DNA of 15,641 nucleotides from Candidatus Sulfobium sp. GTDB lineage: Bacteria; Nitrospirota; Thermodesulfovibrionia; Thermodesulfovibrionales; UBA6898. Every line of letters starts with the position of its first letter. The stretch's first letter is position 1. Positions 994-14,377 of the stretch are shown here, in pieces. The DNA lies in NCBI GenBank assembly GCA_037380845.1, contig JARRRI010000037.1, forward strand, positions 1-15,641, written 5' to 3'. The notes beneath the pieces were generated by a model. That model saw nothing but the letters and a program-made list of their open reading frames with translations. It did not search any database and had not been told where the DNA came from. The translations under genes were made by a program, and so were the position numbers.

Positions 994-3402
994 TTACCCG
1001 AGTTCACGGAGCTTCTTTTTCGCCCTGGCATTGCCGGGGTCGATCAATAGCGCGTGTTTGTATTCTTCCATCGCCCTGTATCGTATGCCGGCCCTCTCAT
1101 AGGCCTCTCCGGCCGCCAGCCTTATGTTGACATCTTCCGGCAAGGCATCGACCGCCTTTCTCATGACCATAACCGCCTCATCCGGCATGTTTTTCTTCAC
1201 AAAATACCGGTAGACATGGAAAAAATATGACGGCCTCAATTCCCTCTCATTACCGGCATAACCGAGGGCCAGGAGGTATTCCTTTTTCGCAAGGTCGTCC
1301 CGGCCGGTCTGGCTGAGGTAATCCGCAAAAGAAAGGTGCGGCGCGACCCTCTCGGGAAGTGAGCCGCGAATGTCTTTATCGTCCAGGCCGTACAATATAA
1401 GGAAGGTTATGTACTCTCCGGTATCCTGCGGTTCGAGTGCAATTGCCTTCTTTATATAACCGAGCCCGGCGTCTTTTTTGCCCCGAGCTATGAGCCATGA
1501 GGAATAAACCTTGTATCTCGCGGGATTGCTTATGTCGCAGTCAATGCCCGCCCGTAAAAGCCTGTCTGCCTCCCCGCCCTTCCCCAGATCTGAAAGCGCA
1601 AGTCCGAGGGTCTGCAGATATTCGGCGTTCGTCGTGTCCAGGAGCACCGCATTCCTGTACTGGACCAGGGCCTGCTCCTTGTTAGAAGAAAGCCATTCGG
1701 CATTGGCTATCTCATAGCGGTACTCAGCCTCGAGCGGATCGGCGCCGGCGGCCCTGTAGGCCTCACTCTTTACACGGGAAAGGTCCTCACCTGCGATACG
1801 GGATTCCGGCCTGCCGTTTTGCATGAAAGGAGAGAAGTATCTCCCGGCCAGTATGCCGACATTGAATGTCAGACCGCAGGCCAGAAGCGCCAGGGCGGAG
1901 ACCGCGAATATCCGCCCATGGCGAGACTCCTTCCTTGCGAGAAGTGTGCCTTCTTTCGTCCCGTTTCTCATCCTCGTGTGCGCTGCGGACACCGTCAGCC
2001 CGGCAAGGAAGAAGAAATAGAGGCCGTTGGCCCCTGTCTGAAGATTAAAATCTGCCATGCTGTGGATCAGTATGGAAACCAGGCCGGTGAGGCCGCCCGC
2101 CAAAAGATAGATGGAATACGGCTCTCTCCTTTTCATGAAAGTCCTCAGAGACCGGTATAAAACAGCCAGCAGGAACCATCCCATAAGCGCACATGCAACG
2201 ATGCCGCCGTCAGTCGCCAATTCCATAAAGTCATTATGGGCATGTTCGAGCGGACCCGCCGCCGCTATTGAACGGTATCGGGGATAAATATCTGCAAAGG
2301 TGCCGAACCCGGTACCCGTCAAGGGGAACTGTCTGACGATGTTGACGCAGTCCCGCCAGATGTCGAAGCGCAAATTGGAAATAGCTCCCTGCCCGTCCCT
2401 CAGATTCCTGAATTTCTCCAGTATCGGCCCCCAGCCGAACCAGCCGGACGCCGAAAGAATAAAAGCCAGAATAACAATAATTACAAGGGCCCTGTTGCTC
2501 CTCTTCCTCTTTTTTGCGACCAGCAGACAGAAGAATATCATTGACAGACTCAGGCTTATGATGCCGCCCCGGGAAAGGCTGAGGAAGACGGAAGTAGCGA
2601 TCAGCACCGACGACAGCCCCAGCAGGATGTGTACGTTTGTGCCCTTCTGGTTGAATGCCTCGGTCATCCTTTCGCGAAAAGACCCGTATTCGGTGTACGG
2701 TCTGCTCAGCAGAAAAAAACCGAAGACGACCGGAAAGATCATCTCCATCAGACCGGCGTAATGGTCCCTGTTGACGTAGGGTCCGAAGGGCGTCCCCGGA
2801 TATGTCAAACCCCTCAGCCAGTAGATTTTGCCATTCGGGATAATATACTGGAGTATGGCAAAGAAGGCGACCACTGATCCCAGCAGAATCACGGTAGAAA
2901 CCGTCTTCTTCAGCATCTCCTTCCTCGCCAGGACCTGGACGGTGATGAAATAGGCGGCAGCGTAAGACGTAAACCTGAAGAACTCTGAAACAGTGGCCTT
3001 CCTGCAGATTGAAATAGAACCCCATCCCGCATGGCCGCCTGTCCATGCCGTCTCCCGGTACAGGGACCAGGCACCCGGCGACAGGAGCTTCAGGACCGGC
3101 GGAGGAAGGGGGATGATCTGCACTATCGCGTACGACAGAAACAGCAACAGAGGGACGGTACCCGGGACTTCCCGTAATGGCTTCCCGGTGAGGACACTTC
3201 TGAAAAATATCAGACACAGCGCAAGAACGGAAGCCGACTCCATCACTGTCAGAGACCATTGTTCGACGGTCCCGAAGGCGAGGGGGGAAAAGATCAGGAG
3301 AAAGACAAGAATTCTTTGGACCGTAACGTTCATCGAGACGTGAGCCCCATTCCCCTCAAAGTTACTCTTCGGCTGTTTCCAGGTCAAACGTTTCCCGGCC
3401 AT
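994..3402 (-). CDS. O-antigen ligase/Wzy-like polymerase family membrane protein with C-terminal TPR repeats
   Basis: Many hydrophobic segments; motifs FGPYVNRDHYAG, SLSRGG, RFDIWRD, PLTGTGFGTF, HAHNDFME; C-terminal TPR-like helices (e.g. AMEEYKHALLIDPGNARAKK). The start could instead be ATG 3333. Confidence 0.85.
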   Translation of the reverse strand: MAGKRLTWKQPKSNFEGNGAHVSMNVTVQRILVFLLIFSPLAFGTVEQWSLTVMESASVLALCLIFFRSVLTGKPLREVPGTVPLLLFLSYAIVQIIPLPPPVLKLLSPGAWSLYRETAWTGGHAGWGSISICRKATVSEFFRFTSYAAAYFITVQVLARKEMLKKTVSTVILLGSVVAFFAILQYIIPNGKIYWLRGLTYPGTPFGPYVNRDHYAGLMEMIFPVVFGFFLLSRPYTEYGSFRERMTEAFNQKGTNVHILLGLSSVLIATSVFLSLSRGGIISLSLSMIFFCLLVAKKRKRSNRALVIIVILAFILSASGWFGWGPILEKFRNLRDGQGAISNLRFDIWRDCVNIVRQFPLTGTGFGTFADIYPRYRSIAAAGPLEHAHNDFMELATDGGIVACALMGWFLLAVLYRSLRTFMKRREPYSIYLLAGGLTGLVSILIHSMADFNLQTGANGLYFFFLAGLTVSAAHTRMRNGTKEGTLLARKESRHGRIFAVSALALLACGLTFNVGILAGRYFSPFMQNGRPESRIAGEDLSRVKSEAYRAAGADPLEAEYRYEIANAEWLSSNKEQALVQYRNAVLLDTTNAEYLQTLGLALSDLGKGGEADRLLRAGIDCDISNPARYKVYSSWLIARGKKDAGLGYIKKAIALEPQDTGEYITFLILYGLDDKDIRGSLPERVAPHLSFADYLSQTGRDDLAKKEYLLALGYAGNERELRPSYFFHVYRYFVKKNMPDEAVMVMRKAVDALPEDVNIRLAAGEAYERAGIRYRAMEEYKHALLIDPGNARAKKKLRELG

Positions 3403-3408
3403 CTGCCG

Positions 3409-5583
3409 CTACATGATGTCGTATCTGTTTTCTCCGTCAGCCGCGTAATAGTAATTATGATAGCGCGAATAATAGTACTTGTTCTTTTTCAGGTCGAAGG
3501 CGTTGATCACCACCCCGAAGACATTGGCATTAAGGTCGGCGAGCGACTTCAGACTCCTGCCCAGTACTTCGTAAGTGGTCTTTCCCGCCCTGGTAACGAC
3601 TATAGAGCCGTCCAGGACCTTGCCCAGGATAAGGCTGTCGACTACCGTGAGGATGGGCGGCGAGTCCCAGATTACTATATCGTATTCCCGGCCCAGCAGG
3701 CCCATCATCTCCACAAGCTTTCCGGAACCGAGAAGTTCGGACGGATTGGGGGGGACAGGCCCCGAGGGGATAACCTGAAGGTTCGGAAGAGGGCCTACAC
3801 GTATGATATCCATGTCGGAGGCTCCGGCCAGGTATGTGCTCAGTCCCTTCGAGTTGTCCATCCTGAAAACTTTGTGGACACGCGGTTTTCTCAAATCCGC
3901 ATCGACCAGGAGCACCCTGTACGCCGACTGGGCGATCGCCGCCGCCAGATTTATTGAGGTGACTGTCTTGCCCTCTTCGGGTCCGGCGCTGGTCACGAGT
4001 ATGTGCTTGGGCGGTTTCTCGGCTGAAGAAAGCAGGAGGCACGTCCTGATAGCCTTGTAATTCTCGGCGAAGGTCGAAGTCGGGTTGTCGACCACGGCGT
4101 TTTCAATCGGCCTGTCGTTAGAGGGGAAAAGTGGGATGAGGCCGAAAACCGGCACGCCGAACCTGGCCTCGACTTCCTCCGGCGATTTGACGGACTGATC
4201 GAGATATTCAACGAAAAACGCCATGCCGAAGCCCCCGAATAATCCCACGATTATTCCGAGCAGGACGTTGAGGGTCTTCCGCGGTTTCACGGGTGAAGCG
4301 GGTGTACGGGCCTTTTCAACGATCATCACATTGGCAGTCTGGATCTGTTCGGTGATATTCTGCTCCTTTATCCTCTTGATCAGTGCCTCATAGAGCTGTC
4401 TGTTGGTCTCGACCTCCCTGTTGATCATGTCGTACTCAATGAATTTTTCGTTGAGGTTGATGGCGTGACCCTTGGCCTCGGAAAGCATCCTTCTGAGGTT
4501 GTTCTCGTTGGACCTGGCCAGATCGTATTCATTTTTTATCGAGTCGATTACCCGCTTTATCTCCTGTTCCTTCTTTTCCTTCAAAACGTTCAGGTCCTCA
4601 CGTGCCCGGATCATGAGGGGGTGCTTCTTTCCGTATTTCTGCGAAAGGTCCATGATCTTCTGCTCCGCCTCCAGTATCTGCTGCCGAAGGGACTGGAGGG
4701 TCGGGTCATCAGCGATGGCAGACACCGTCTCCGCCTTTCCAGGATGGCTGGAGACCTCCCTGACCTGGTTATACAACGTCTCCATCTCCTCCCGCCTGGT
4801 CTGTGCCTTTACGAGCTGACTGTTGAGCTGCGATATCTGTTCCGGAACGATAGCCATTTTGTTCTGGATGGTAACGAGGTCCTGGCTCTTGATATACTTC
4901 TGGAGCGCCCTCTCGGAGTCGTCGAGCCTCTTCTTCTCTTCTTCAGCCTTCTTGGTCATCCACTGAAGCGTATGTTTGGTGGAACCCATATTCAAATCCA
5001 GAAGCTCATCTATGTATGCCTTCGCCACCGTGTTGGCAACGGATTTTGCCAGCCCGGGATTAGTTGATATATAATTGACAGTGACGATCTTGCTGTTTTT
5101 CACTGGGTCGACGGATATACCTGCACTGATGGTCTTTGCAAGCATGTCCTCTCTGCTCTCCTCCTCCGAGCCCGAGGGCTTCTCCTCCTTCTTTCCGAAA
5201 ATCACTGACGAGAGGTCCCTGAACCATCCGGAAACCGCGTCCACCATTGAAAACCCGCTGTCCGGCCCCTTCATAAGAGAGCCATAAGTCTTTTCAAGGT
5301 CGAGCATCCGGACCACCCTTCTTGCCACCGGTATGCTTTTTATTATCTGATACTGGGTCTCGTAAAAGTCGGGGTCATAAGGCATATATCCGTAATTCGT
5401 CATAAGGGGTACGGACTCCCTCTTCTCGATGAGGACCTTGGTCGATGCCATATAGACCGGCGTGGCAGAAAATGTGCCTATAAGAACAACCGTAAAAACC
5501 ACGATAAAAAAGGTATAGACCGTATACCTTCTCTTATCGATGACCCTCAGGTAGTCCCGTAAATGAATCTCTCTCTCTTCCAT
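3409..5583 (-). CDS. wzc: Polysaccharide co-polymerase / tyrosine autokinase (Wzc/GumC family)
   Basis: N-terminal EIHLRDYLRVI plus TM helix, PVYMAST, long coiled-coil periplasmic region, PVKPRK plus second TM, Walker A GPEEGKT, DADLRKP, Walker B DSPP and Tyr-rich tail YYYSRYHNYYY. Confidence 0.93.
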   Translation of the reverse strand: MEEREIHLRDYLRVIDKRRYTVYTFFIVVFTVVLIGTFSATPVYMASTKVLIEKRESVPLMTNYGYMPYDPDFYETQYQIIKSIPVARRVVRMLDLEKTYGSLMKGPDSGFSMVDAVSGWFRDLSSVIFGKKEEKPSGSEEESREDMLAKTISAGISVDPVKNSKIVTVNYISTNPGLAKSVANTVAKAYIDELLDLNMGSTKHTLQWMTKKAEEEKKRLDDSERALQKYIKSQDLVTIQNKMAIVPEQISQLNSQLVKAQTRREEMETLYNQVREVSSHPGKAETVSAIADDPTLQSLRQQILEAEQKIMDLSQKYGKKHPLMIRAREDLNVLKEKKEQEIKRVIDSIKNEYDLARSNENNLRRMLSEAKGHAINLNEKFIEYDMINREVETNRQLYEALIKRIKEQNITEQIQTANVMIVEKARTPASPVKPRKTLNVLLGIIVGLFGGFGMAFFVEYLDQSVKSPEEVEARFGVPVFGLIPLFPSNDRPIENAVVDNPTSTFAENYKAIRTCLLLSSAEKPPKHILVTSAGPEEGKTVTSINLAAAIAQSAYRVLLVDADLRKPRVHKVFRMDNSKGLSTYLAGASDMDIIRVGPLPNLQVIPSGPVPPNPSELLGSGKLVEMMGLLGREYDIVIWDSPPILTVVDSLILGKVLDGSIVVTRAGKTTYEVLGRSLKSLADLNANVFGVVINAFDLKKNKYYYSRYHNYYYAADGENRYDIM

Positions 5584-5597
5584 CTCCCCTTGTATGA

Positions 5598-6392
5598 CTA
5601 GAAGAAACTCTCGGGTACGACGATGACGTCGTCCGGCAGCACGGTCTGGTCCATTTTCACATCTTCTATTACGTCGTCTTTCCCGTTTTCATTTCGTATG
5701 ACCTTCACCCTTCCGGTCGACGCCTTATCAGTAAACCCTCCTGCCATGGTTATCGCCTTCAGTACCGTTGTCCCCTCCTCGAATTTGTATGCATCGGGTT
5801 TCCTGACCTCGCCCGTCACATAAAAAACTCCGGCCTTGGGTATGTAAATACTGTCGCCGTCCACAATGGGGATGTCCTGCGAAGTATCACCCATCTCTAT
5901 CAGGCGCTTGAGATCGATTGTGATGATTTTTTCCTTCTTACCGGCAGAACCCGGCTTCCTCTTGACTATCGCCTTGTCGCCGGCATCCTTGGTCAGATCA
6001 CCCGCCTTCGAAAGGACTTCGAGGAAGGTCGTATAACCCTTGAGTTCATACAGGCCAGGGTTCTTTACCTGGCCCATGATAGTCGCTTTCTGACTTCTGA
6101 ACTCTTTGATAAATACGGTAACCTGGGGCAAGACAATATAACCGTCGGAAAGCAAGCCGGCTATCTTCCGCGACACCTCGGATACTGTGAGTCCTGAAAT
6201 CTTGACATGCCCTATGAGCGGAAAGATTACGGTCCCCTCACCGCTCACGCGCACCGTGGTAGTCAGATCGGGATGGTCATATACCGTTATCTGAAGAACG
6301 TCGCCTTCCCCGACGATATAATCCTGAGCGGCCACGGGACGACATATGGCCAGGATGAAAACCAGAAATCCGATGATCCCAATCGACTTCAT
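5598..6392 (-). CDS. wza: Polysaccharide export OPX protein (Wza family; Poly_export plus two SLBB domains), short non-lipoprotein type
   Basis: DYIVGEGDVLQITVYDHPDL...VSGEGTVIFPLIG export motif; SLBB motifs MGQVKNPGLYEL and VTGEVRKPDAY...AITMAGGFT; ends VIVVPESFF. Confidence 0.9.
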   Translation of the reverse strand: MKSIGIIGFLVFILAICRPVAAQDYIVGEGDVLQITVYDHPDLTTTVRVSGEGTVIFPLIGHVKISGLTVSEVSRKIAGLLSDGYIVLPQVTVFIKEFRSQKATIMGQVKNPGLYELKGYTTFLEVLSKAGDLTKDAGDKAIVKRKPGSAGKKEKIITIDLKRLIEMGDTSQDIPIVDGDSIYIPKAGVFYVTGEVRKPDAYKFEEGTTVLKAITMAGGFTDKASTGRVKVIRNENGKDDVIEDVKMDQTVLPDDVIVVPESFF

Positions 6393-6536
6393 ATCCTAGA
6401 CTTATACATAATCCTCAGTTAGTATACTTAAAGACCGTCACAATTATAAAGGAATTTATCAAAAAAACGGAAATGTTTGTCCCTGAAGGGGGGGCGCAGG
6501 CATGAGGCCGCCGCCGGCCCCGACATCTCAAGAGGG

Positions 6537-7931
6537 TTACAAGGACCCCGTAACCCTGAAGAATATCGTGTTGCTCACGAAATCGAAATCGGCATAGGAG
6601 GAGTCGCGCCTGGTGTATACATACCCGACACTGCTTCTGAGCCATTTCTGGAACTCATACTGCAGGCCTATGGCCGCCTGATATATGTTGTTCTCTATGT
6701 CAGCAGTATTCCCTTCCGCTGAAACAATGCCTTTATATCTCTCGTTGATGTAGAGAAGGTCTGCCAGGCCGGTGATCTTCGAAGTAAAGAGCTGCTGGTA
6801 CTTGGCTCCTATCTGGTTGGTTATTGTATACAGGGATGTCTCCACGTTGGTCTCATCCGTCTTCCTGAAGCCTGTTACCGTCAGAGAAGTCTTGGGGGTG
6901 AACTGATGCTTCATCCGGGCCTCCGCTATAAACGTATTTACCTTTTCTGAAGAGCCTGTAAAGTCTTTGACGCCGTAGCCGGCCTTTACCATCCCCTTTG
7001 ATTTCGCCGTTATGTCCCATTGGACACCGGCCAGAAAATGATGTTCGTCACTGTCGAGGCTGGGATCATTGACATATGAAATGTCGATAAACCTGTACTC
7101 TGCAAACGCAGCAGTCTTGGTCTTGAACCTGTAAAAAACATACCCGGAAAAAGAGTTGTCGGTCCGGTCCCTGAACCTGTTCCTCAGGTCATCGTAGCGG
7201 GTTATGAAGTTGGAATAATCCAGCCGGAGACGCAACCGGTTGCCGGTATCGACATATGCAGCGGCCTCAAAAAGATTATTGTAAAACTTGTCGACCTCTC
7301 CCGGAGCGGTCGATATGTTCAGCCCCCTGGTTTCAAAGGATTTCACGAAAAGGTCGACAACATCGGCCGAAAATTTGTTGCCGTTATACTCGAAGCTCCC
7401 GTATCCGGTATGGCTGAGGGTATTCCTGTAAGGAGAATTGGCAGACGGCAAAGGGATATCGGCCCGATACAGAAAATAGGTCTGATACCTCCTCAGGACC
7501 TCCGGTTTGTACCTCGTGAAGATCAGCCCGCCCGGCATGCGGTTGGCCGTGTCGTCGATCACCAGGCGCTTTTCGGTAACCCGGGGCAGTGAAAGCCATA
7601 TCTCGGGCGACAGTATTGTGCTCAGATTCGTCTTTTTATTGTCTTTTGTCGCAAAGGCGTTGTCCGTGTATATCTCAGTAACCGACAGGGAGGGGTGAAA
7701 GTAACTCCCTCCCCTTCCGAATATATCCCTGTAACTTCTCATGGTGCCGACCGGGCCTTCTTCCCGCTGCAATCCTTCCGGTGTGCCTTCATCTCCAGCC
7801 TCGCTCAGAAGGAAATAGCAGTTCAAGTTCGCAGGCGCCCCACCCCTCTCACCTTCAACAATACCGGCATGGGAAGCGATTGCATGGAAAAAGAAAGAAA
7901 AAAACAAGATAGCTAACACGATTTTTTTCAT
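6537..7931 (-). CDS. Outer-membrane beta-barrel protein associated with exopolysaccharide export
   Basis: Signal peptide MKKIVLAILFFSFFFHAIASHA from ATG 7931 (track start TTG 7976 is likely too long); alternating aromatic/polar beta strands; C-terminal NTIFFRVTGSL resembling a beta-signal; directly upstream of wza-wzc. Confidence 0.82.
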   Translation of the reverse strand: MKKIVLAILFFSFFFHAIASHAGIVEGERGGAPANLNCYFLLSEAGDEGTPEGLQREEGPVGTMRSYRDIFGRGGSYFHPSLSVTEIYTDNAFATKDNKKTNLSTILSPEIWLSLPRVTEKRLVIDDTANRMPGGLIFTRYKPEVLRRYQTYFLYRADIPLPSANSPYRNTLSHTGYGSFEYNGNKFSADVVDLFVKSFETRGLNISTAPGEVDKFYNNLFEAAAYVDTGNRLRLRLDYSNFITRYDDLRNRFRDRTDNSFSGYVFYRFKTKTAAFAEYRFIDISYVNDPSLDSDEHHFLAGVQWDITAKSKGMVKAGYGVKDFTGSSEKVNTFIAEARMKHQFTPKTSLTVTGFRKTDETNVETSLYTITNQIGAKYQQLFTSKITGLADLLYINERYKGIVSAEGNTADIENNIYQAAIGLQYEFQKWLRSSVGYVYTRRDSSYADFDFVSNTIFFRVTGSL

Positions 7932-7943
7932 AATTTCCCTGAT

Positions 7944-7973
7944 ATTCTTGACAAAGAAACTGGTATTGTCAAG
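7944..7973 (-). promoter_or_regulatory. Putative promoter of the export operon overlapped by an inverted repeat
   Basis: Minus strand TTGACA (7972-7967), 17-nt spacer, AAGAAT (7949-7944); dyad CTTGACAA-N11-TTGTCAAG at 7947-7973. Confidence 0.45.
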
Positions 7974-8051
7974 CAAAATCGGGACATTCCAGGGAGACTC
8001 TTCACGTCTGTGCGCAAGGCTTCCAACTTAACATTCAGTTCAGCCACGCCA

Positions 8052-8176: not shown

Positions 8177-8686
8177 TTAAAAAGTCGACGGACTGATGGG
8201 AGGGTCGGGGTTAGGCTTCGGGATAGGATCGAAAGGCGCAAGAGTGTTTTCCGGCGGGTCGGAGGCTTGATGTTCAGTTTCAAAAAAGCTGAGGCTCACT
8301 CCCGCCCGCTGCAGGCTTGCTGCCACGGCAACGGAATTTACTCCGGCGTCCACAGCGCATCTTGAAACAACGTCGGATGTAGTACCTGCTTCCAGGGCGC
8401 CCGAAATTATCTCCTTCAGGTTCCCGCCACCGTCTATGGCACATTTGACCACCAGGCACGGCTTGTTGCCAAGTTCTATAGCAGTACTGACAACTTCCCT
8501 GTCGTTTATGCCCTGCTCGATCGTCACCTCTACGGCTCTGCAAATATCCGCTCGTCCATTATTTTCATAAAGCCTGTCCTTTGTGTCCTTACTGGCGAAG
8601 GCTGGAATGGAGAAGATAAGAAAGAATATCGCGGCAGCGATACACGAGACAGAACTCTTACTAATAGCTGTTTTCCCGCCTTTCAT
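8177..8686 (-). CDS. Hypothetical secreted protein with 14-aa tandem repeats and a Pro-rich tail
   Basis: Signal-peptide-like N-terminus (IAAAIFFLIFSIPAFA); five 14-aa units; tail DPIPKPNPDPPISPSTF; same strand as the export genes. Confidence 0.75.
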   Translation of the reverse strand: MKGGKTAISKSSVSCIAAAIFFLIFSIPAFASKDTKDRLYENNGRADICRAVEVTIEQGINDREVVSTAIELGNKPCLVVKCAIDGGGNLKEIISGALEAGTTSDVVSRCAVDAGVNSVAVAASLQRAGVSLSFFETEHQASDPPENTLAPFDPIPKPNPDPPISPSTF

Positions 8687-8776: not shown

Positions 8777-10681
8777 TCACACCTCCCTTCCGTTGCTGGC
8801 ATTAAGAACACCGGGGGTGCAGTCATGTAGCTTCCTGTAAAGGCTGTTCTTCCCGAGAAGCTCCCTATGTGTCCCTCGCTCCACTATCTCTCCCTTATCC
8901 AGAACCAGTATCGTGTCGGCCATGTCTACCATTGAAAGCCGGTGGGCTACGATGAATGTGGTCCTGTCGGCGGCGAGTTTGTTTATCGAGTCCTTGACCA
9001 GCGCTTCCGTCCGAGGGTCCAGCGAAGAAGTCGGCTCGTCAAGTATAAGTATAGCCGGATTTCTCAGAAATGCCCGTGCGATCGAAATGCGCTGTCTCTG
9101 TCCTGCCGAAAGCCGGACCCCGCGTTCACCCACTTCAGACTCATATCCGTCGGGAAACGCCTCGATATCGTCAGCAATGTGTGCCAGCCTCGCGGCCCGG
9201 ACAACATCTTTTTTCGCGGCAAATGGGCTGCCGTGCTTTATGTTGTTCTCTATGGTGTCGTCAAACAGGAAGACCTCCTGGGACACGACGCCGACCTTCC
9301 CTCTGAGCCATCTCGGGGACATCTCCCGGATATCGCGACCGTCCAGATATATGGCCCCCTGCTGCGGAGCCTGGAACTTCAGAAGGAGGTTCACCAATGA
9401 GGTCTTGCCCGCCCCTGTGGGTCCCGCAAGGGCAATAATCTCGCCCGGTCCCGCCGAGAAGTTTGTGTTCCTGAGGACCGGCCTGCCCTCTTCATACCAG
9501 AAGGAGACGTTGTCGAATGTGATTTCACCCCTTATTTTCCCCGGGTCACCAACGTCCCGTATATCATCTTCTTCAGTAAATTCCGGAATGAGGCTGAAAA
9601 TCTCCTTAAGCCTCTCCATGGATGCAAAGGCCGGCTGGATCGACATGTGGAAAGTCAATATGCTGTTCAATGCGCCTGCAAGAAGAACTGCATAAGACGT
9701 GAAGGCAACGTAATCTCCGATGGTCAGCTGCCTTTGCAAAACCTCATTGATACCAACCCACATGATTACCAGATTGGCTGCAAACAGGGAACCGGCCGAA
9801 GCATAATTCGAAAAAAGAGAAAGAAACATCGCCTTTATCCTTTTATGGACAACAGCCCTCATACCGCTTGAGACCTTCTGCCCTTCCCGTTCTTCGGCGG
9901 TATTCGCCTTGATGGTCTCCACTCCGGACAAGATCTCCTGTAAGTCGCCTGAGACGCGGGCACTCGTTTCGCGTTCCTGGAAACTGACATCCCTGAGCCT
10001 TGAGCCGAAAAAATAGTTTATCATCAAATAGAGAGGTAAAGCGGCGGCCAGTATGAGCGACAGTTTGAAGCTGAGTGCGAAAACTATTACTATGCCGAAA
10101 AAGAAATAGAACGCCTTGGAAAAAACCTGGGCAATGCTTTCGGAAAACAACATCTGAAGGACGTATATATCGTCTGACACCCTCGACATCAGGTATCCCG
10201 TCCGCTGTCTCTTGAAAAAAGGCACGGGGAATCTCAGGAGATGATCGAACAGGGTTGTCTGGATATTGAAGGTAACCTCCTGCTGAAACCTCAGCGCCAG
10301 GTACTTCTGGATGATGCCGGTTATTCCGGCCGCTATACCGATTGTCAGTACGGCCAGGACCACAAAAGTCAATGCTTCGGGCGCGTGCCTGACAGGGTCC
10401 GATATATCAGAGAGGCCGAGAATCCGAAGAAAATGTCCGACCCCGTGGAGGTCCTTTTTCAGGACCACAAAATCTATCAGGACCTTGCCACTCAGCGGTA
10501 GCAGTGAACTGAAAGCGGTGGCAACAAGGGATAAAACAAGGACTGCGAGACCGGTCTTCCACAAAGGCCTCACAAATCTGCCGAAGAAAAGAACATCCCG
10601 GTATCCAAACTCACCACCCCGGCGTTCGGGCCTCTCCAGGATGTCCCTCAGATATGCCGTTGCTTTACGAAGTTGCGTCAC
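8777..10681 (-). CDS. ABC exporter with fused permease and ATPase (MsbA-like/peptide exporter type)
   Basis: N-terminal TM domain (TGYLMSRVSDD); Walker A GPTGAGKT, Q-loop VSQE, signature LSAGQRQR, Walker B ILILDE, H-loop VAHRLS. No N-terminal C39 peptidase domain is apparent. Confidence 0.92.
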   Translation of the reverse strand: MTQLRKATAYLRDILERPERRGGEFGYRDVLFFGRFVRPLWKTGLAVLVLSLVATAFSSLLPLSGKVLIDFVVLKKDLHGVGHFLRILGLSDISDPVRHAPEALTFVVLAVLTIGIAAGITGIIQKYLALRFQQEVTFNIQTTLFDHLLRFPVPFFKRQRTGYLMSRVSDDIYVLQMLFSESIAQVFSKAFYFFFGIVIVFALSFKLSLILAAALPLYLMINYFFGSRLRDVSFQERETSARVSGDLQEILSGVETIKANTAEEREGQKVSSGMRAVVHKRIKAMFLSLFSNYASAGSLFAANLVIMWVGINEVLQRQLTIGDYVAFTSYAVLLAGALNSILTFHMSIQPAFASMERLKEIFSLIPEFTEEDDIRDVGDPGKIRGEITFDNVSFWYEEGRPVLRNTNFSAGPGEIIALAGPTGAGKTSLVNLLLKFQAPQQGAIYLDGRDIREMSPRWLRGKVGVVSQEVFLFDDTIENNIKHGSPFAAKKDVVRAARLAHIADDIEAFPDGYESEVGERGVRLSAGQRQRISIARAFLRNPAILILDEPTSSLDPRTEALVKDSINKLAADRTTFIVAHRLSMVDMADTILVLDKGEIVERGTHRELLGKNSLYRKLHDCTPGVLNASNGREV

Positions 10682-11030: not shown

Positions 11031-11321
11031 GTGAAAATATCGGTGGATACAATTTTCAAAAAAAGCGAAAATGTTGTCTTTAGAAAAATACAGGATGAAT
11101 ACATCCTTGTGCCTATCGTCGCCTCTGCTGCTGATGTCGATTCGATCTTCAATCTCAATGAGACGGGTGCCGCAGTCTGGGAGAGAATTGACGGTGTGAA
11201 GAAACTGTCTGACATAATTGAAGATATCAAGGCGGAATATGAAGGCGAACGAAAGGAGATAGAAGATGACGTAATGGCGTTTGTCGGTAGAATGGTAGAA
11301 GAAAAGTTGATTGAAGCGTGA
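11031..11321 (+). CDS. PqqD-family RiPP recognition element (stand-alone RRE)
   Basis: 96 aa with pattern FRKIQDEYILVP...IFNLNETGAAVWERIDG...LSDIIEDIKAEYE...IEDDVMAFVGRMVEEKLI; TGATG-coupled to the radical SAM gene. Confidence 0.92.
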   Translation: MKISVDTIFKKSENVVFRKIQDEYILVPIVASAADVDSIFNLNETGAAVWERIDGVKKLSDIIEDIKAEYEGERKEIEDDVMAFVGRMVEEKLIEA

Positions 11322-12445
11322 TGAGCAACGTTTCTTACGCATATTTCAGCGCGAAAGTGCATTCCGGCACTTCAGATAAGCGCATCCCGCTCGACGCAAG
11401 CATCGACCTCACCTACCGGTGCAACAACAAGTGCGTCCACTGTTACTGCAATCTCCCCGAACGCGACGTCACGGCAAAAAGCAATGAGCTGAATACGGAA
11501 GAGGTAAAGAAGCTGTTTGACGGCCTCGCGTCGTTAGGCACTCTATGGCTCCTGATAACCGGGGGAGAGCCCCTCCTCAGGGAAGACTTCGAGGAGATTT
11601 ATATTTATGCAAAAAAGAAGGGGTTTCTCATCACTTTCTTTACGAACGGAACCCTCATCGAAGACAAGACCGTTCGGCTTCTGACGAAATATCCTCCTTT
11701 CGTGGTCGAGATTTCCCTTTATGGAGCTGCTGAGGATACGTATGAAAAAGTTAGCCGCGTAAAAAGGTCTTATCAACGGTGCATGGAAGGGATAAGAAGA
11801 ATCATTAACGCCGGCATAAGGCTTAGACTCAAGTCCATGGCTATGACAATCAACCGGCATGAGATTGATGCAATGGACAGGATGGCCCGGGAACTGGGGT
11901 GCCAGTTCCGGTTTGACCCCATAGTCAGTAAACGAATTGACAAGAATGCTTTGTCAGACCCTGCGAAATATCGAATCTCTCCCGAAGACGTCGTGCGCCT
12001 CGATAAGGCATATCCGAAGCGTATGGAGGGATGGAAGCGATTTTGCGATAAATTTGTTGGAGAACAGAACAGGGACAACAGACTCTACAAATGCGGCGCA
12101 GGTATCGGCGCCATTCACGTCGACCCTTACGGGGATGTAAGGGGCTGCATGACGATGAGGGGGGATGGTTTTTCAATAAGGGAGCACGACCTGGGGTGGA
12201 TTTGGAGGGAAGGCATACTTTCAGTAACCACCCGAAAGAAGGATTTCTTCCTTCCCTGCGATGACTGTCATCTCGCGAATCTCTGCGGGCAGTGCCCGGC
12301 ATGGTCAATCCTTGAAAGCGGGGACATGAGAAAAGAAGTTGCATATTTATGTGAAATTGCAAAAATAAGGAGCAGGAATTTTGAATTTATCAAACCAGAA
12401 CGAGGGGAGAAAAGATATGGGAAAGAAGAAATGGTCAAAGCCTGA
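11321..12445 (+). CDS. Radical SAM / SPASM-domain peptide maturase
   Basis: LTYRCNNKCVHCY (CxxxCxxC), ITGGEPLLR, FTNGT, ISLYG; C-terminal SPASM with 7 Cys (CGAG...DPYGDVRGC...CDDCHLANLCGQCPAWS...YLC). ATG 11321 overlaps the RRE stop; GTG 11318 is an alternative start. Confidence 0.93.
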   Translation: MSNVSYAYFSAKVHSGTSDKRIPLDASIDLTYRCNNKCVHCYCNLPERDVTAKSNELNTEEVKKLFDGLASLGTLWLLITGGEPLLREDFEEIYIYAKKKGFLITFFTNGTLIEDKTVRLLTKYPPFVVEISLYGAAEDTYEKVSRVKRSYQRCMEGIRRIINAGIRLRLKSMAMTINRHEIDAMDRMARELGCQFRFDPIVSKRIDKNALSDPAKYRISPEDVVRLDKAYPKRMEGWKRFCDKFVGEQNRDNRLYKCGAGIGAIHVDPYGDVRGCMTMRGDGFSIREHDLGWIWREGILSVTTRKKDFFLPCDDCHLANLCGQCPAWSILESGDMRKEVAYLCEIAKIRSRNFEFIKPERGEKRYGKEEMVKA

Positions 12446-12566
12446 GTGTCAGAAGATAAAACTGGTTGTGGAGGAAGCCGTAATAACCGGGTGCAAACAT
12501 GGCCACGATTCCGGCCCCGGAACAATTTGTGCAGGCGGAGCGCTATGCAGAACCGGTGCGAGCTAA
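12417..12566 (+). CDS. Putative RiPP precursor peptide (49 aa)
   Basis: MGKKKWSKPECQKIKLVVEEAVITGCKHGHDSGPGTICAGGALCRTGAS. SD-like GAGGGGAG upstream of ATG 12417; basic N-terminus with W-x-x-P motif; Gly/Cys-rich C-terminal half; overlaps the rSAM 3' end by 29 nt. Confidence 0.85.
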   Translation: MGKKKWSKPECQKIKLVVEEAVITGCKHGHDSGPGTICAGGALCRTGAS

Positions 12567-12644
12567 TCCCTCGCTGAGAAGAAAAATAACGAGAGGCACA
12601 GACTCTTTTTTTATCTCTGAGGGTAATGTGTAATGTTCCCTCGT

Positions 12645-12705: not shown

Positions 12706-13587
12706 TTAAGTCACTAAGCTTCTCACGTAGTTCACAACAGAAGAATCATTAACAAATTCAAGCTCATAGCATTCTTTTTCCTGGGCAACCAGTGTACAGA
12801 AGTCCAAAGAAAACTCCATCCCCTCCCTGTTCCAGAAGGTTGGGAAGCACCTAACCAAAAGCCTGTTGACAGCGTCGGTTTTAGAAATTGGAATCGCCCT
12901 GTTCTCCTTGCCGTGCCTGATGAAAAATATTTTCTCTATCGGGACCCCTATGTTTTTATGCATCTCTGCAGTCCCGTGCCATGGGGTACCGAATGCCGAG
13001 AGTTCATTGCTGAATTCTCGAATTATAACCCTTTCGTCCGTCAAAACGTCCGCTCCACCATCTTGCTGCCAGATTTCTGACATCGTTGACTTGCCCGCGC
13101 CTGATACGCCTGCAAAGAGATATCCTCTGCCGTTTAAAGAAATACAAGCGGAATGGAGAATTATTCCGATTTTGTTAATATTAATGTGGCCGGAGACAGC
13201 TAGATCGCCAAGGGGATATTCGAGGGGGGCGAGTATACCTTCGTCATTGGGTCTTGCATAAATTATGAAGTCAGTAAATTCCCTGTCGGCCTTTATCATC
13301 CTATAAGGCTTAACTTCTCTCAAAGCTGCTTGTAAAGAGATTAAGTAGCCAGGTTTATTATCATCTTTAAGTATTGTCCATAAACCGTCCGGACCGGATG
13401 TGAATATCTTTCTCGACGATTCCGAGGAAGGAAAAGGGGACGTTGTATTCAGCCGGAACTGAATGTCCGGCAATTCAAAGGTCCCGGCGGCAAATGACTC
13501 AAGAGCCGCATCCAAAAATATTTTATACTCCTCCGGATTGGATTCAAGGGAAATTTTCAATTCTCCGATACTAAAGAATCTCCTCAT
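12706..13587 (-). CDS. HPr-kinase-related P-loop NTPase/kinase of the type found in RRE-containing RiPP clusters
   Basis: ILHSACISLNGRGYLFAGVSGAGKSTMS (His plus Walker A), VLTDERVII acidic pair, AFGTPWHG. ATG 13587 is preferred over TTG 13623, which coincides with a -35-like box. Confidence 0.8.
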   Translation of the reverse strand: MRRFFSIGELKISLESNPEEYKIFLDAALESFAAGTFELPDIQFRLNTTSPFPSSESSRKIFTSGPDGLWTILKDDNKPGYLISLQAALREVKPYRMIKADREFTDFIIYARPNDEGILAPLEYPLGDLAVSGHININKIGIILHSACISLNGRGYLFAGVSGAGKSTMSEIWQQDGGADVLTDERVIIREFSNELSAFGTPWHGTAEMHKNIGVPIEKIFFIRHGKENRAIPISKTDAVNRLLVRCFPTFWNREGMEFSLDFCTLVAQEKECYELEFVNDSSVVNYVRSLVT

Positions 13588-13593
13588 TGTATT

Positions 13594-13647
13594 ACTATGC
13601 CAAAATATATACGTGATTTTCAAAGCCTGTTACTGAACTGATAAAAT
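13594..13647. promoter_or_regulatory. Putative back-to-back promoters for the kinase-like and peptidase genes
   Basis: Minus: TTGAAA (13623-13618)-N18-CATAGT (13599-13594), ATG 6 nt later. Plus: TTCAAA (13619-13624)-N17-TAAAAT (13642-13647). Both -10 boxes are preceded by TGn and the -35 boxes overlap. Confidence 0.45.
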
Positions 13648-13668: not shown

Positions 13669-14112
13669 TTGAAGAAGGTTAAAGAAGTTCACAAAAAACT
13701 ATTGGAGGAAGGATTTGATATTCGTATCAGTAGCCTTGGCTCGTCAATGTTTCCTCTGATTGCGACAGGTGACAAGATCACCATAAGCCCGGAGAAAAGC
13801 TTCGTCGTCGGAAACCTTATCGTATTCACGAGAGGTGAACAGATGGTGTGTCACAGGCTTGTAAAAGTTTTCGAGAAAGGGGGCATCAAATATTATCAAG
13901 CCCGGGGGGATTCATTTTTTTGCCTTGATGACCCGGTAACATCGGACCAAATACTGGGAAGGGTGACGAAGATCGAGAGAGAGAACGTCTCGGTCTTGAG
14001 AAGAATCCTGCTTTTTGTCCATCCAGTACTCAGGTTCAGCAAGATAAATGCATTTGTTATAGCAATCCTGATAAGACTCAAAGCATTCCTTCCATCGCCC
14101 CAATCCCATTAA
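13669..14112 (+). CDS. S24/S26-family (signal peptidase I-like) serine peptidase
   Basis: LGSSMFPLIATGD (catalytic Ser box), GNLIVF, MVCHRLV (His general base), ARGDS...DDPV...ILGRV; TTG start after GAGGA; hydrophobic/basic C-terminus and no N-terminal TM helix. Confidence 0.85.
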   Translation: MKKVKEVHKKLLEEGFDIRISSLGSSMFPLIATGDKITISPEKSFVVGNLIVFTRGEQMVCHRLVKVFEKGGIKYYQARGDSFFCLDDPVTSDQILGRVTKIERENVSVLRRILLFVHPVLRFSKINAFVIAILIRLKAFLPSPQSH

Positions 14113-14313
14113 TTCATGAACCGCCCGATGGAGACTCTGGGCCGGATTTACATTTTCGGTTAATAAAGCGCCTGTTTCGGATGGAGAGGCCACCGGTCTG
14201 AAATATGGCAATCCGTTGGAAAAAATCAGGATTTCTGAAACAATGACCATCGCAGGTCGTTGATTCCAAGGCTTCGAAAACAACCCGCTAAGTCTGTGAT
14301 CCTGGCTCCCATG

Positions 14314-14377
14314 AATAAGCATACAATTCTTGCACATCCGAAAGCGAGTCCGGGACGGTCCGGTGGACTAAAGATAA
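14314..14377 (+). repeat. Direct repeat copy B (~60 bp)
   Basis: AATAAGCATACAATTCTTGCACATCCGAAAGCGAGT..., partner of 10706-10766. Confidence 0.9.

Follow-up and report, generated by a model that had tools for sequence, protein, structure and literature searches.

A predicted RiPP precursor gene beside radical-SAM and kinase-like genes in a Nitrospirota genome belongs to a very large, unnamed peptide family

A 49-codon open reading frame (ORF) lies across the 3′ end of a radical-SAM (rSAM) gene in Candidatus Sulfobium sp. of the phylum Nitrospirota (assembly GCA_037380845.1, contig JARRRI010000037.1). The locus raises the question of whether this short frame encodes a peptide precursor and, if so, which neighboring genes would act on its product. 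The window, which is the whole 15,641-nucleotide stretch of DNA analyzed here, contains the features listed in the table below. As judged by translation and family comparison, the ORF is very probably a genuine precursor gene of a radical-SAM/kinase cassette, and its product is likely to be a ribosomally made peptide that is post-translationally modified and exported.

Features of the window and the basis of their assignment
Feature	Coordinates	Strand	Basis
Polysaccharide export/assembly genes	994..7976	-	Wzy_C+TPR, Wzc-like tyrosine autokinase, EpsE-like export protein, EpsL-like porin
Signal-peptide-bearing, Cys-containing protein, 169 aa	8177..8686	-	Family not found
MsbA-like ABC exporter, 634 aa	8777..10681	-	Pfam ABC_membrane 8.9e-46, ABC_tran 3.1e-32
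Putative discrete PqqD-family RiPP recognition element (RRE), 96 aa	11031..11321	+	NCBIfam sub-threshold, L002 orthologue
Radical SAM/SPASM enzyme, 375 aa	11318..12445	+	Pfam PF04055 E 2.5e-23
Predicted precursor peptide, 49 aa	12417..12566	+	Translation and family comparison
Candidate P-loop kinase-like protein, HprK/PEPCK fold, 305 aa	12706..13623	-	Sub-threshold matches and fold model
Candidate SipW/archaeal-type signal-peptidase-I-like protease, 147 aa	13669..14112	+	Sub-threshold matches, conserved columns

The translated precursor, MGKKKWSKPECQKIKLVVEEAVITGCKHGHDSGPGTICAGGALCRTGAS followed by a stop codon, consists of a leader (approximately residues 1–18), a conserved junction (E19–K27, EEAVITGCK) and a variable core that is rich in Gly, Ser and Pro. 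The leader segment K3–L16 (KKKWSKPECQKIKL) contains a W6-x-x-P9 motif (W-S-K-P-E-C). The peptide has cysteines at positions 26, 38 and 44, the last two inside the core, and a further cysteine in the leader (Cys11); S49 is the final residue. The first-pass annotation of this DNA had described the same 49-residue frame with its WxxP leader, EEAVITGCK junction, three cysteines and terminal Ser, and the translation agrees. The 29-nt overlap with the rSAM gene that it had reported is borne out by the TGA stop codon of that gene at 12443–12445. It had also expected gene callers to miss the frame easily, but the ORF was called, and the exact sequence is present on two contigs in JGI/IMG-derived protein sets. 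A Shine-Dalgarno-like sequence (GAGGGGAG) is positioned 7 nt upstream of the precursor ATG. A simple scan identified no terminator 3′ of the ORF, and the region 12560–12640 folds no better than its shuffles (z -1.37).

The window precursor belongs, as a divergent sequence, to a very large family of peptides. A profile built from seven peptides encoded beside rSAM homologs retrieved 2809 cluster representatives at E<=1e-3 in a full HMMER scan of 1.84 billion proteins. A word-based protein search returned only one relative (84% identity) and thus gravely under-counted the family. Family members are 50–65 residues long. Their leader carries W-x-K-P, the junction reads EE-x-V-L-x-x-C-K and is followed by two or three more cysteines, the variable core is rich in Gly and Pro, and the C-terminal residue is Ser or Thr. 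A 48-sequence alignment shows no variation at W6, P9, E20, C26, C38 and C44 and at least 90% conservation at E19, V22, L23, K27, G33 and S49. Exactly the WxxP, EE-x-V and Cys positions singled out by the first-pass annotation are thus conserved in homologous loci, so non-conservation does not count against the peptide. Its (Y/W)xxPxL leader motif holds in part: W6 and P9 are invariant, but the Leu position is occupied by Cys in the window. A relaxed leader pattern fits 148 of the best 150 matches, all 148 with the Trp, and a strict pattern fits 137 of them. The C-terminal Ser that had been highlighted is a hallmark of the family; of these 137 members, 135 have either Ser (116) or Thr (19) as their last residue. 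The last cysteine is separated from the C-terminal Ser/Thr by exactly six residue positions in 138 of the 148 relaxed-pattern members among the best 150; in the Nitrospirota subfamily, including the window, the distance is usually five. This near-fixed spacing was absent from the earlier description. Between the cysteines, the family has no conserved acceptor position. Neither Pfam nor NCBIfam offers a model of this peptide, and the window precursor had no credible match in either collection. The 48 family members gave weak sub-threshold matches only, none of them to a SynChlorMet (SCM) precursor model; the paeninodin-family model NF033524 matched 15 of the 48 in this manner (best E 0.0069). 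Atlas look-ups returned unnamed clusters only.

The precursor is the third and last gene of an overlapping operon in the order PqqD, radical-SAM/SPASM and precursor, in which the PqqD and rSAM genes share 4 nt at the stop of the former and the start of the latter. The PqqD protein matches the NCBIfam models lasso_PqqD_Bac (2.5e-12) and PQQ_PqqD (2.3e-11), both under cut-off, and its orthologue in the related locus L002 matches Pfam PqqD at 9.4e-19. The ABC exporter is transcribed divergently from the PqqD operon and contains no C39 peptidase domain; its best NCBIfam matches are MsbA-related models, all under cut-off. Pfam and NCBIfam scans assigned no family to the 169-aa protein, homologs of which adjoin the cassette in three other loci (L054, L055 and L057) and fall into unnamed Atlas clusters, and it is a possible accessory component. 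The earlier description of the window had mentioned neither the candidate SipW-type leader peptidase nor the exporter. An ORF at 13912–14337(-) overlaps the peptidase gene, has no family match and is probably spurious. The window contains no PF14907 nucleotidyltransferase; the single PF14907 gene of the genome is located on another contig (C44) in a glycosyltransferase/polysaccharide cluster.

The rSAM enzyme contains a CX3CX2C motif at C35/C39/C42 and eight further cysteines (243, 259, 277, 314, 317, 323, 326 and 345) that are conserved across 15 homologs and would be enough for auxiliary clusters. No NCBIfam model was reached at its cut-off, and the enzyme joins no characterized maturase family of that collection by sequence. 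Its best peptide-maturase matches are MftC, AlbA and PqqE, with the MftC match (112.5 bits) covering residues 25–335, which corresponds to the whole length. The best PDB sequence matches are PqqE (6c8v), the best solved relative, and SkfB (6efn). No characterized thioether synthase matched the enzyme better than AhbD/NirJ2, MftC or PqqE. Homologs with 36–46% identity (L003-L007, L009 and L011-L014) have no family peptide in the available sequence of up to 6 kb on each side, with several of these loci being short contigs or ending at the rSAM gene, and they probably serve other substrates.

The next gene downstream of the precursor encodes the kinase-like protein, which carries a Walker A motif (G-V-S-G-A-G-K-S-T, residues 172–180) followed by L-T-D-E-R; the motif is invariant in homologs. 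Sub-threshold NCBIfam matches were obtained to HprK-related kinase B, ScmC and HprK-related kinase A, and a profile matches HprK 1jb1 with an E value of 0.0024. In a Foldseek search with the AF2 model (pLDDT 91.7), PEPCKs rank first (E 2.7e-6, TM ~0.45) and HprK 1ko7 ranks 50th. These sequence and fold matches make the protein a candidate HprK/PEPCK-fold kinase, and Ser49, proposed earlier as a kinase target, gains a putative enzyme encoded directly downstream. The neighboring protease is a candidate leader peptidase. It matches the NCBIfam models sigpep_I_arch (1.7e-10; 41 bits against a cut-off of 51.85) and SipW (9.4e-8, sub-threshold) as well as Pfam Peptidase_S24 (22.8 bits against 23.3), and G-x-S26-M-x-P, H62-R63 and D81 are invariant columns among five homologs. 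Both the kinase and the peptidase assignments lie under every curated cut-off.

Comparison of loci indicates that members of the peptide family are accompanied by the same set of enzymes. Among 401 genomes analyzed from the phylum, 12 encode a family peptide, counting the genome studied here. In the 11 others, the genes around the peptide comprise rSAM in 11, PqqD in 10, the kinase in 10 and the signal peptidase I (SpI) in 8; most misses occur at contig ends (L047, L048 and L049), and one 17-kb locus (L056) has no SpI by BLAST. Among 24 metagenome loci of at least 5 kb, rSAM is present in 17, PqqD in 16, SpI in 15, the kinase in 12, the ABC exporter in 6 and PF14907 in 5, and in five loci the family peptide has no gene for any of these enzymes within the sequence available around it. 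Absences in these 24 loci are soft because the local HMMs were built from few sequences. Moreover, the loci were found with 12 mainstream family members, and the sample therefore describes the mainstream family and not the subfamily of the window.

The PqqD protein likely binds the WxxP leader. The first-pass annotation had named the leader motif as RRE-binding, and a gene for a discrete PqqD-type RRE is located directly upstream in the operon; the window thus presents the (Y/W)xxP leader and nearby PqqD-type RRE that characterize RRE-dependent RiPPs. A complex model of PqqD and the precursor scored 0.47, compared with 0.00 for the best of three controls, and its runs agree in at least 94% of contacts with a partner pLDDT of at least 55. 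In calibration, 116 of 157 solved complexes passed the mark applied to such models, as did 2 of 215 mismatched pairs; the passes with scores of <=0.60 comprised both of these mismatches but no more than 18 solved complexes. The pass may reflect memorized structures, since like complexes have already been solved. The model of the native pair thus lends weak support to the RRE–leader binding put forward earlier.

A processing pathway can be proposed from these assignments. The PqqD protein would bind the WxxP leader and present the peptide to the rSAM/SPASM enzyme, which would modify the core, most likely by forming thioether cross-links at Cys26, Cys38 and Cys44. In the manner of paeninodin-type kinases, the HprK-like kinase would transfer phosphate to the Ser49 hydroxyl at the C-terminus. 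The SipW-like peptidase, helped by the RRE, would cut off the leader within the EEAV junction or shortly past it, a role that LppS plays in the clusters for linear polyphosphorylated peptides (LPPs), and the MsbA-like pump would export the product. Leader removal of the SpI type is fairly probable, Ser49 phosphorylation has a slightly better than even chance, and thioether formation falls somewhat short of an even chance. The cysteines could alternatively form disulfides or bind metal.

Three other explanations were weighed against this pathway. The ORF might be a chance open frame over the rSAM 3′ end and the spacer that is never translated. It is indeed short, shares 29 nt with the rSAM gene, has likewise open reverse-strand frames across it and lies in a stretch that none of 13 RNA runs is listed as containing. 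These points are set against thousands of homologs with invariant residues in common, a place beside rSAM, PqqD and kinase genes that is kept across phyla, and a Shine-Dalgarno sequence present in both the window and L002. Along the + strand, the precursor frame is the sole frame open in both loci, with 9 codons differing only synonymously and 17 non-synonymously. A chance frame is already contradicted by these comparative data and is highly improbable.

The remaining two explanations accept a true precursor and differ in what becomes of it. The rSAM enzyme might install a modification other than a thioether, such as a C-C or C-O cross-link, an epimerization or MftC-like chemistry at the C-terminal residue, with the cysteines forming disulfides or binding metal and the kinase and peptidase acting as in LPP biosynthesis. 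The whole-length MftC match, the PqqE relationship and the missing acceptor position between the cysteines are consistent with such chemistry, and the strict spacing of the last cysteine (138/148) suggests an enzyme that measures from the C-terminus. The MftC and PqqE matches are far under their cut-offs, however, and three invariant cysteines in a hypervariable core beside a SPASM enzyme are what typically marks sacti- and ranthipeptides, in which the rSAM links a Cys sulfur to an alpha carbon (sacti) or to a beta or gamma carbon (ranthi). A non-thioether outcome is rather unlikely. Alternatively, the kinase might activate the C-terminal Ser/Thr for joining to the cysteine five to six residues upstream, generating a C-terminal macrocycle either by phosphate elimination and thiol addition in a lanthionine-like manner or through an rSAM-made Cys-Ser/Thr link. 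The near-fixed C-x5-[S/T]-COOH ending in 138/148 members and the C-x4-S ending in most of the window's subfamily would suit such a ring, and the mixture of terminal Ser (116) and Thr (19) among 137 members fits lanthionine/methyl-lanthionine logic better than it fits the Thr-rejecting LPP kinase LppK. The cassette contains no lyase or cyclase gene, though, the (poly)phosphates made by the HprK-like RiPP kinases known to date are stable, and the macrocycle is pure inference; we regard it as very unlikely. The pathway of leader recognition, core modification, Ser49 phosphorylation and SpI-type cleavage is preferred over all three.

The peptide family is still unnamed and unstudied. Among the papers listed by literature searches, judged in part by title and abstract, none describes the PqqD/rSAM/HprK-like kinase/precursor architecture, although rSAM-containing clusters may appear in the supplementary material of the LPP paper, and no paper joins HprK, SPASM and RiPP; searches joining PF14907 with radical SAM retrieved unrelated work only, and 'linear polyphosphorylated peptide' retrieved the LPP paper only (PMC13381572). 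If the preferred pathway is true, thousands of sequence clusters from many uncultured phyla mark an uncharacterized modification pathway, which joins a kinase/RRE/signal-peptidase toolkit, first demonstrated in 2026 for LPPs, to radical-SAM chemistry. A more far-reaching proposal, which we hold to be a long shot, is an undescribed RiPP class in which an rSAM-cross-linked, Cys-scaffolded peptide would be (poly)phosphorylated at a C-terminal Ser/Thr five to six residues past the last cysteine; polysaccharide enzymes (the PF14907 transferase and the glycosyltransferases among the neighboring EPS genes) would extend the phospho-end. Such a pathway would yield a glycan anchored to or primed by the peptide, or else a biofilm signal, and not an antibiotic. 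The window holds one of the smallest versions of the cassette (one rSAM, one 49-aa precursor, five or six genes), and this small gene set makes it a convenient construct for asking how the rSAM enzyme acts on the three invariant cysteines, whether phosphate is added to the terminal Ser, and what makes the cassette recur in polysaccharide-export loci.

The cassette resembles several known systems in part. Like SCM systems (TIGR04248, TIGR04249, TIGR04250 and TIGR04251), for which the literature search found no paper, it combines a putative HprK-related protein, a PqqD homolog and an rSAM/SPASM enzyme, but no window protein reaches the equivalog cut-offs of TIGR04248 to TIGR04251 (ScmC, 26.5 against 125; ScmD, 29.2 against 100; ScmE and ScmF, 74.8 and 78.7 against 400 for the rSAM), and the window has one rSAM where SCM has two. 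With sacti- and ranthipeptide systems (AlbA, SkfB, StsB and PapB), it shares a SPASM rSAM beside a short precursor with conserved cysteines in a variable core. Its rSAM scores far lower than the respective cut-offs (AlbA, 87.8 against 850; PapB, 66.9 against 340), and its RRE is a separate protein. Genes for kinases and signal-peptidase-type enzymes are not known from sacti- or ranthipeptide systems. Paeninodin/pseudomycoidin-type lasso tailoring, which employs an HprK-like kinase and a PF14907 nucleotidyltransferase, offers a WxxP leader, a PqqD-type B1 RRE and a kinase targeting a C-terminal Ser, as far as described in the available text of PMC8498205. The window has an rSAM and a serine peptidase in place of the lasso cyclase and B2 protease, and none of the window ORFs scanned contains an Asn-synthetase-like macrolactam cyclase or B2 cysteine protease domain.

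The closest described system is the LPP cluster of Bacillota (LppA/K/B/S/D/N; Popov et al., Nat Commun 2026, PMC13381572), a relationship absent from the first-pass annotation. In the available text of that paper, the HprK-like LppK phosphorylates the precursor, the SipW-like LppS requires the RRE LppB for leader cleavage, [Y/W]xxP is the RRE-binding motif and the clusters sit in capsule loci. The window likewise combines a discrete RRE predicted to read a [Y/W]xxP leader with a candidate HprK-like kinase, a putative SipW/archaeal-type signal peptidase I gene, an MsbA-like exporter, a polysaccharide-locus location and a patchy distribution. The same text contains no mention of 'radical SAM', 'rSAM' or 'SPASM' and gives phosphorylation as the primary and sole core modification, with no second class-defining enzyme, whereas the rSAM/SPASM gene of the window overlaps the RRE and precursor genes. 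The LPP leader follows YxxPxVLxHQxIxFETxxS, in contrast to W-S-K-P-E-C...EEAVITGCK in the window, and its HQ/FET pattern occurs in none of the 148 relaxed-pattern family members. Furthermore, LPP cores as described there are not Cys-scaffolded, the LPP core cluster holds a PF14907 NTP transferase that the window lacks, and the host is a member of Bacillota and not of Nitrospirota. The predicted phospho-site also differs: in LPPs, it is core Ser3 and not the C-terminus, and LppK rejected Thr, whereas 19 of the 137 strict-pattern family members among the best 150 matches end in Thr.

The precursor gene encodes MGKKKWSKPECQKIKLVVEEAVITGCKHGHDSGPGTICAGGALCRTGAS, in which all of the peptide features described in the first-pass annotation are present: the leader KKKWSKPECQKIKL, the junction EEAVITGCK, the core residues Cys26, Cys38 and Cys44 and the terminal Ser49. 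An additional cysteine, Cys11, lies within the leader. The rSAM (radical SAM) ORF stops with TGA at 12443-12445, and the ORF coordinates bear out the 29-nt overlap with the precursor gene claimed earlier. GAGGGGAG is positioned 7 nt 5' of the precursor ATG. A TTG start at 12381 would give an extended form; the ATG is the likely start because M-x-K-K opens the peptides of relatives right ahead of the Trp residue. Two opposite-strand open frames, lying over the precursor and peptidase genes, are probably spurious, as they have neither a family match nor a conserved context.

Features of the contig and of related loci
Feature	Location	Strand	Size	Remarks
169-aa protein	8177-8686	-	169 aa	signal-like hydrophobic stretch at the N-terminus; four Cys and a C-terminal S-P-[S/A]-x-F conserved; no family match
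MsbA-like ABC exporter	8777-10681	-		divergent from PqqD operon; without peptidase domain
PqqD-family protein (RRE)	11031-11321	+	96 aa	upstream of rSAM gene, 4-nt overlap
rSAM/SPASM enzyme	11318-12445	+	375 aa	CX3CX2C at C35/39/42
Opposite-strand frame	12268-12525	-		over precursor gene
Precursor	12417-12566	+	49 aa	
Kinase-like protein	12706-13623	-	305 aa	convergent with precursor gene; invariant G-x-S-G-x-G-K-S-T P-loop
Signal-peptidase-I (SpI) homologue of SipW/archaeal type	13669-14112	+	147 aa	after kinase-like gene; conserved S-M-x-P, H-R and D columns
Opposite-strand frame	13912-14337	-		over peptidase gene
Sole PF14907 nucleotidyltransferase of the genome	contig C44, 21237-21968 (locus L138:9130-10290)			not beside peptide cassette; in polysaccharide biosynthesis cluster (Wzy_C, GT2, three GT1, GT4-GGDEF fusion, ManC, phosphomannomutase, epimerase)
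Single-frame peptidase fusions (three GNAT acetyltransferase, one PF14907)	L051:6423-7418, L054:6254-7288, L055:9341-10375, L052:9714-11213			
Peptidase_C25 (gingipain-type)	L057:23-1120			directly 5' of PqqD-rSAM-peptide-kinase cassette in one Nitrospirota relative

A word-based protein search returned a single relative of the peptide (84% identical), and the neighbourhoods of rSAM homologues were therefore inspected. Among 31 loci with homologues of the 375-aa enzyme, four (L002, L008, L010 with two copies, and L015) contain five small ORFs of the same design. A profile of seven peptides, scored against 1.84 billion cluster representatives, yielded 2809 matches at E≤1e-3, 44 of them with E≤1e-10. 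Among the best 150 of the 2809 matches, 137 display the strict leader pattern and 148 a relaxed one, with Trp in every case; the remaining two are long repetitive proteins that do not fit. The strict-pattern members end in Ser (116), Thr (19), Asp (1) or Val (1) and mostly contain two (51) or three (76) further cysteines past the C-K pair. In a 48-sequence alignment including the window peptide, W6, P9, E20, C26, C38 and C44 are invariant, and conservation reaches 90% or more at E19, V22, L23 (where the window has Ile), K27, G33 and S49. The residues singled out in the first-pass annotation are thus the conserved positions of the family. Exactly six residues lead from the last Cys to the C-terminal Ser/Thr in 138 of the 148 relaxed-pattern members, and the intervening residues vary freely.

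On its sequence, the window peptide is a divergent family member. It has a leader with one residue fewer, and its last Cys-to-C-terminus distance is five, as in most close relatives. The Trp and Pro of the (Y/W)xxPxL leader motif are retained, but its Leu is replaced by Cys, as also in the closest relatives (the 84% identical P0002, L002, both L047 peptides and L050). Compared with L002, labelled Thermodesulfovibrionales and sharing 70% rSAM identity, the peptide has 23 identical codons, 9 synonymous and 17 non-synonymous differences, mainly in the core.

Pfam-A and NCBIfam lack a model for the peptide, its Atlas clusters are unnamed, and ten family members are named 'hypothetical protein' or left blank at source. 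The window proteins fail the SynChlorMet cassette models. A search of the openly accessible literature found no publication on an rSAM, HprK-like kinase and SpI cassette.

The window rSAM reaches no NCBIfam cut-off; its top partial matches are AhbD/NirJ2, MftC, AlbA and PqqE, and its best solved relatives are PqqE and SkfB. Eight additional cysteines, conserved in 12-15 of 15 homologues, mark a SPASM-type C-terminal half. The kinase-like protein gives sub-threshold matches to HprK-related kinases A and B and ScmC, and its profile matches HprK 1jb1 (E 0.0024). Among solved folds, its confident model (pLDDT 91.7) comes closest to PEP carboxykinases, HprK itself ranking 50th; the kinase fold is common to HprK and PEPCK. 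The SipW-type protein is a candidate leader peptidase. The remainder of this complete 15.6-kb contig (genome of 3.18 Mb in 104 contigs) carries polysaccharide export genes. Homologues of the 169-aa protein directly adjoin cassette PqqD or peptidase genes in L054, L055 and L057, so that it may be an unrecognised cassette component or second substrate.

The peptide occurs in 12 of 401 genomes scanned in the phylum, its own included, and patchily in the same taxonomic family (4 of 14 other genomes). Alongside the peptide in the remaining 11 genomes of the phylum lie rSAM (11/11), PqqD (10/11), kinase (10/11) and peptidase (8/11), and all 13 peptides end in Ser. Most missing genes fall at contig ends (L047, L048 and L049); in L056, BLAST found no peptidase. 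Of nine loci scanned, four have polysaccharide export genes within reach; three encode the peptidase as a GNAT-domain fusion and one as a fusion with PF14907 (L051, L052, L054 and L055), whereas the window peptidase is a bare protein. Among 24 metagenome loci of at least 5 kb around mainstream members, rSAM is found in 17, PqqD in 16, peptidase in 15, kinase in 12, exporter in 6 and PF14907 in 5; five loci have none of these. L008, L010 and L015 are larger cassettes that carry PF14907 along with two or three rSAM genes, and the window cassette is the minimal form. Within 6 kb of the rSAM/SPASM homologues in L003, L005, L006, L007 (Methanosarcina), L012 and L013 (38-40% identity, mostly adjoining an ABC-type gene), no peptide of the family was found.

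The proposed binding of the leader by the RRE (RiPP recognition element) was modelled as a PqqD-precursor complex, which scored 0.47 versus 0.00 for the best of three controls, in a range that also contains both passing mismatches. Of the 157 solved complexes 116 pass the mark, as do 2 of the 215 mismatches; at 0.60 or under, though, the passes comprise only 18 solved complexes and both of these mismatches. Contact agreement between runs was at least 94%, with partner pLDDT of at least 55. Model memory may contribute to the score, since similar complexes are already solved. The model thus lends weak support to leader binding.

The LPP (linear polyphosphorylated peptide) clusters of Bacillota are the closest characterised system. 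In these clusters, LppB is the RRE and binds a YxxP leader, HprK-like LppK polyphosphorylates core Ser3, and leader cleavage by SipW-like LppS requires LppB; they further comprise an MsbA-like pump and a PF14907 transferase and are located in capsule loci (PMC13381572). By analogy, the RRE would bind the window leader, the rSAM would modify the Cys scaffold, the kinase would phosphorylate Ser49, the SpI-type peptidase would remove the leader with RRE help, and the pump would export the product. Thioether formation, suggested by the three invariant cysteines and the SPASM enzyme, is the weakest step; no conserved acceptor position is visible in the family peptides. Against this reading, the kinase and peptidase assignments score under curated thresholds, the single PF14907 gene lies on a different contig within a glycosyltransferase cluster, none of 13 RNA runs is listed as containing the stretch, and Thr, which LppK refuses, is the last residue of some family members. 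The text of the LPP paper does not mention radical-SAM enzymes (PMC13381572). The window encodes a compact family member convenient for experiments, and its system is filed as an RRE-dependent RiPP joining LPP-type tailoring to radical-SAM chemistry.
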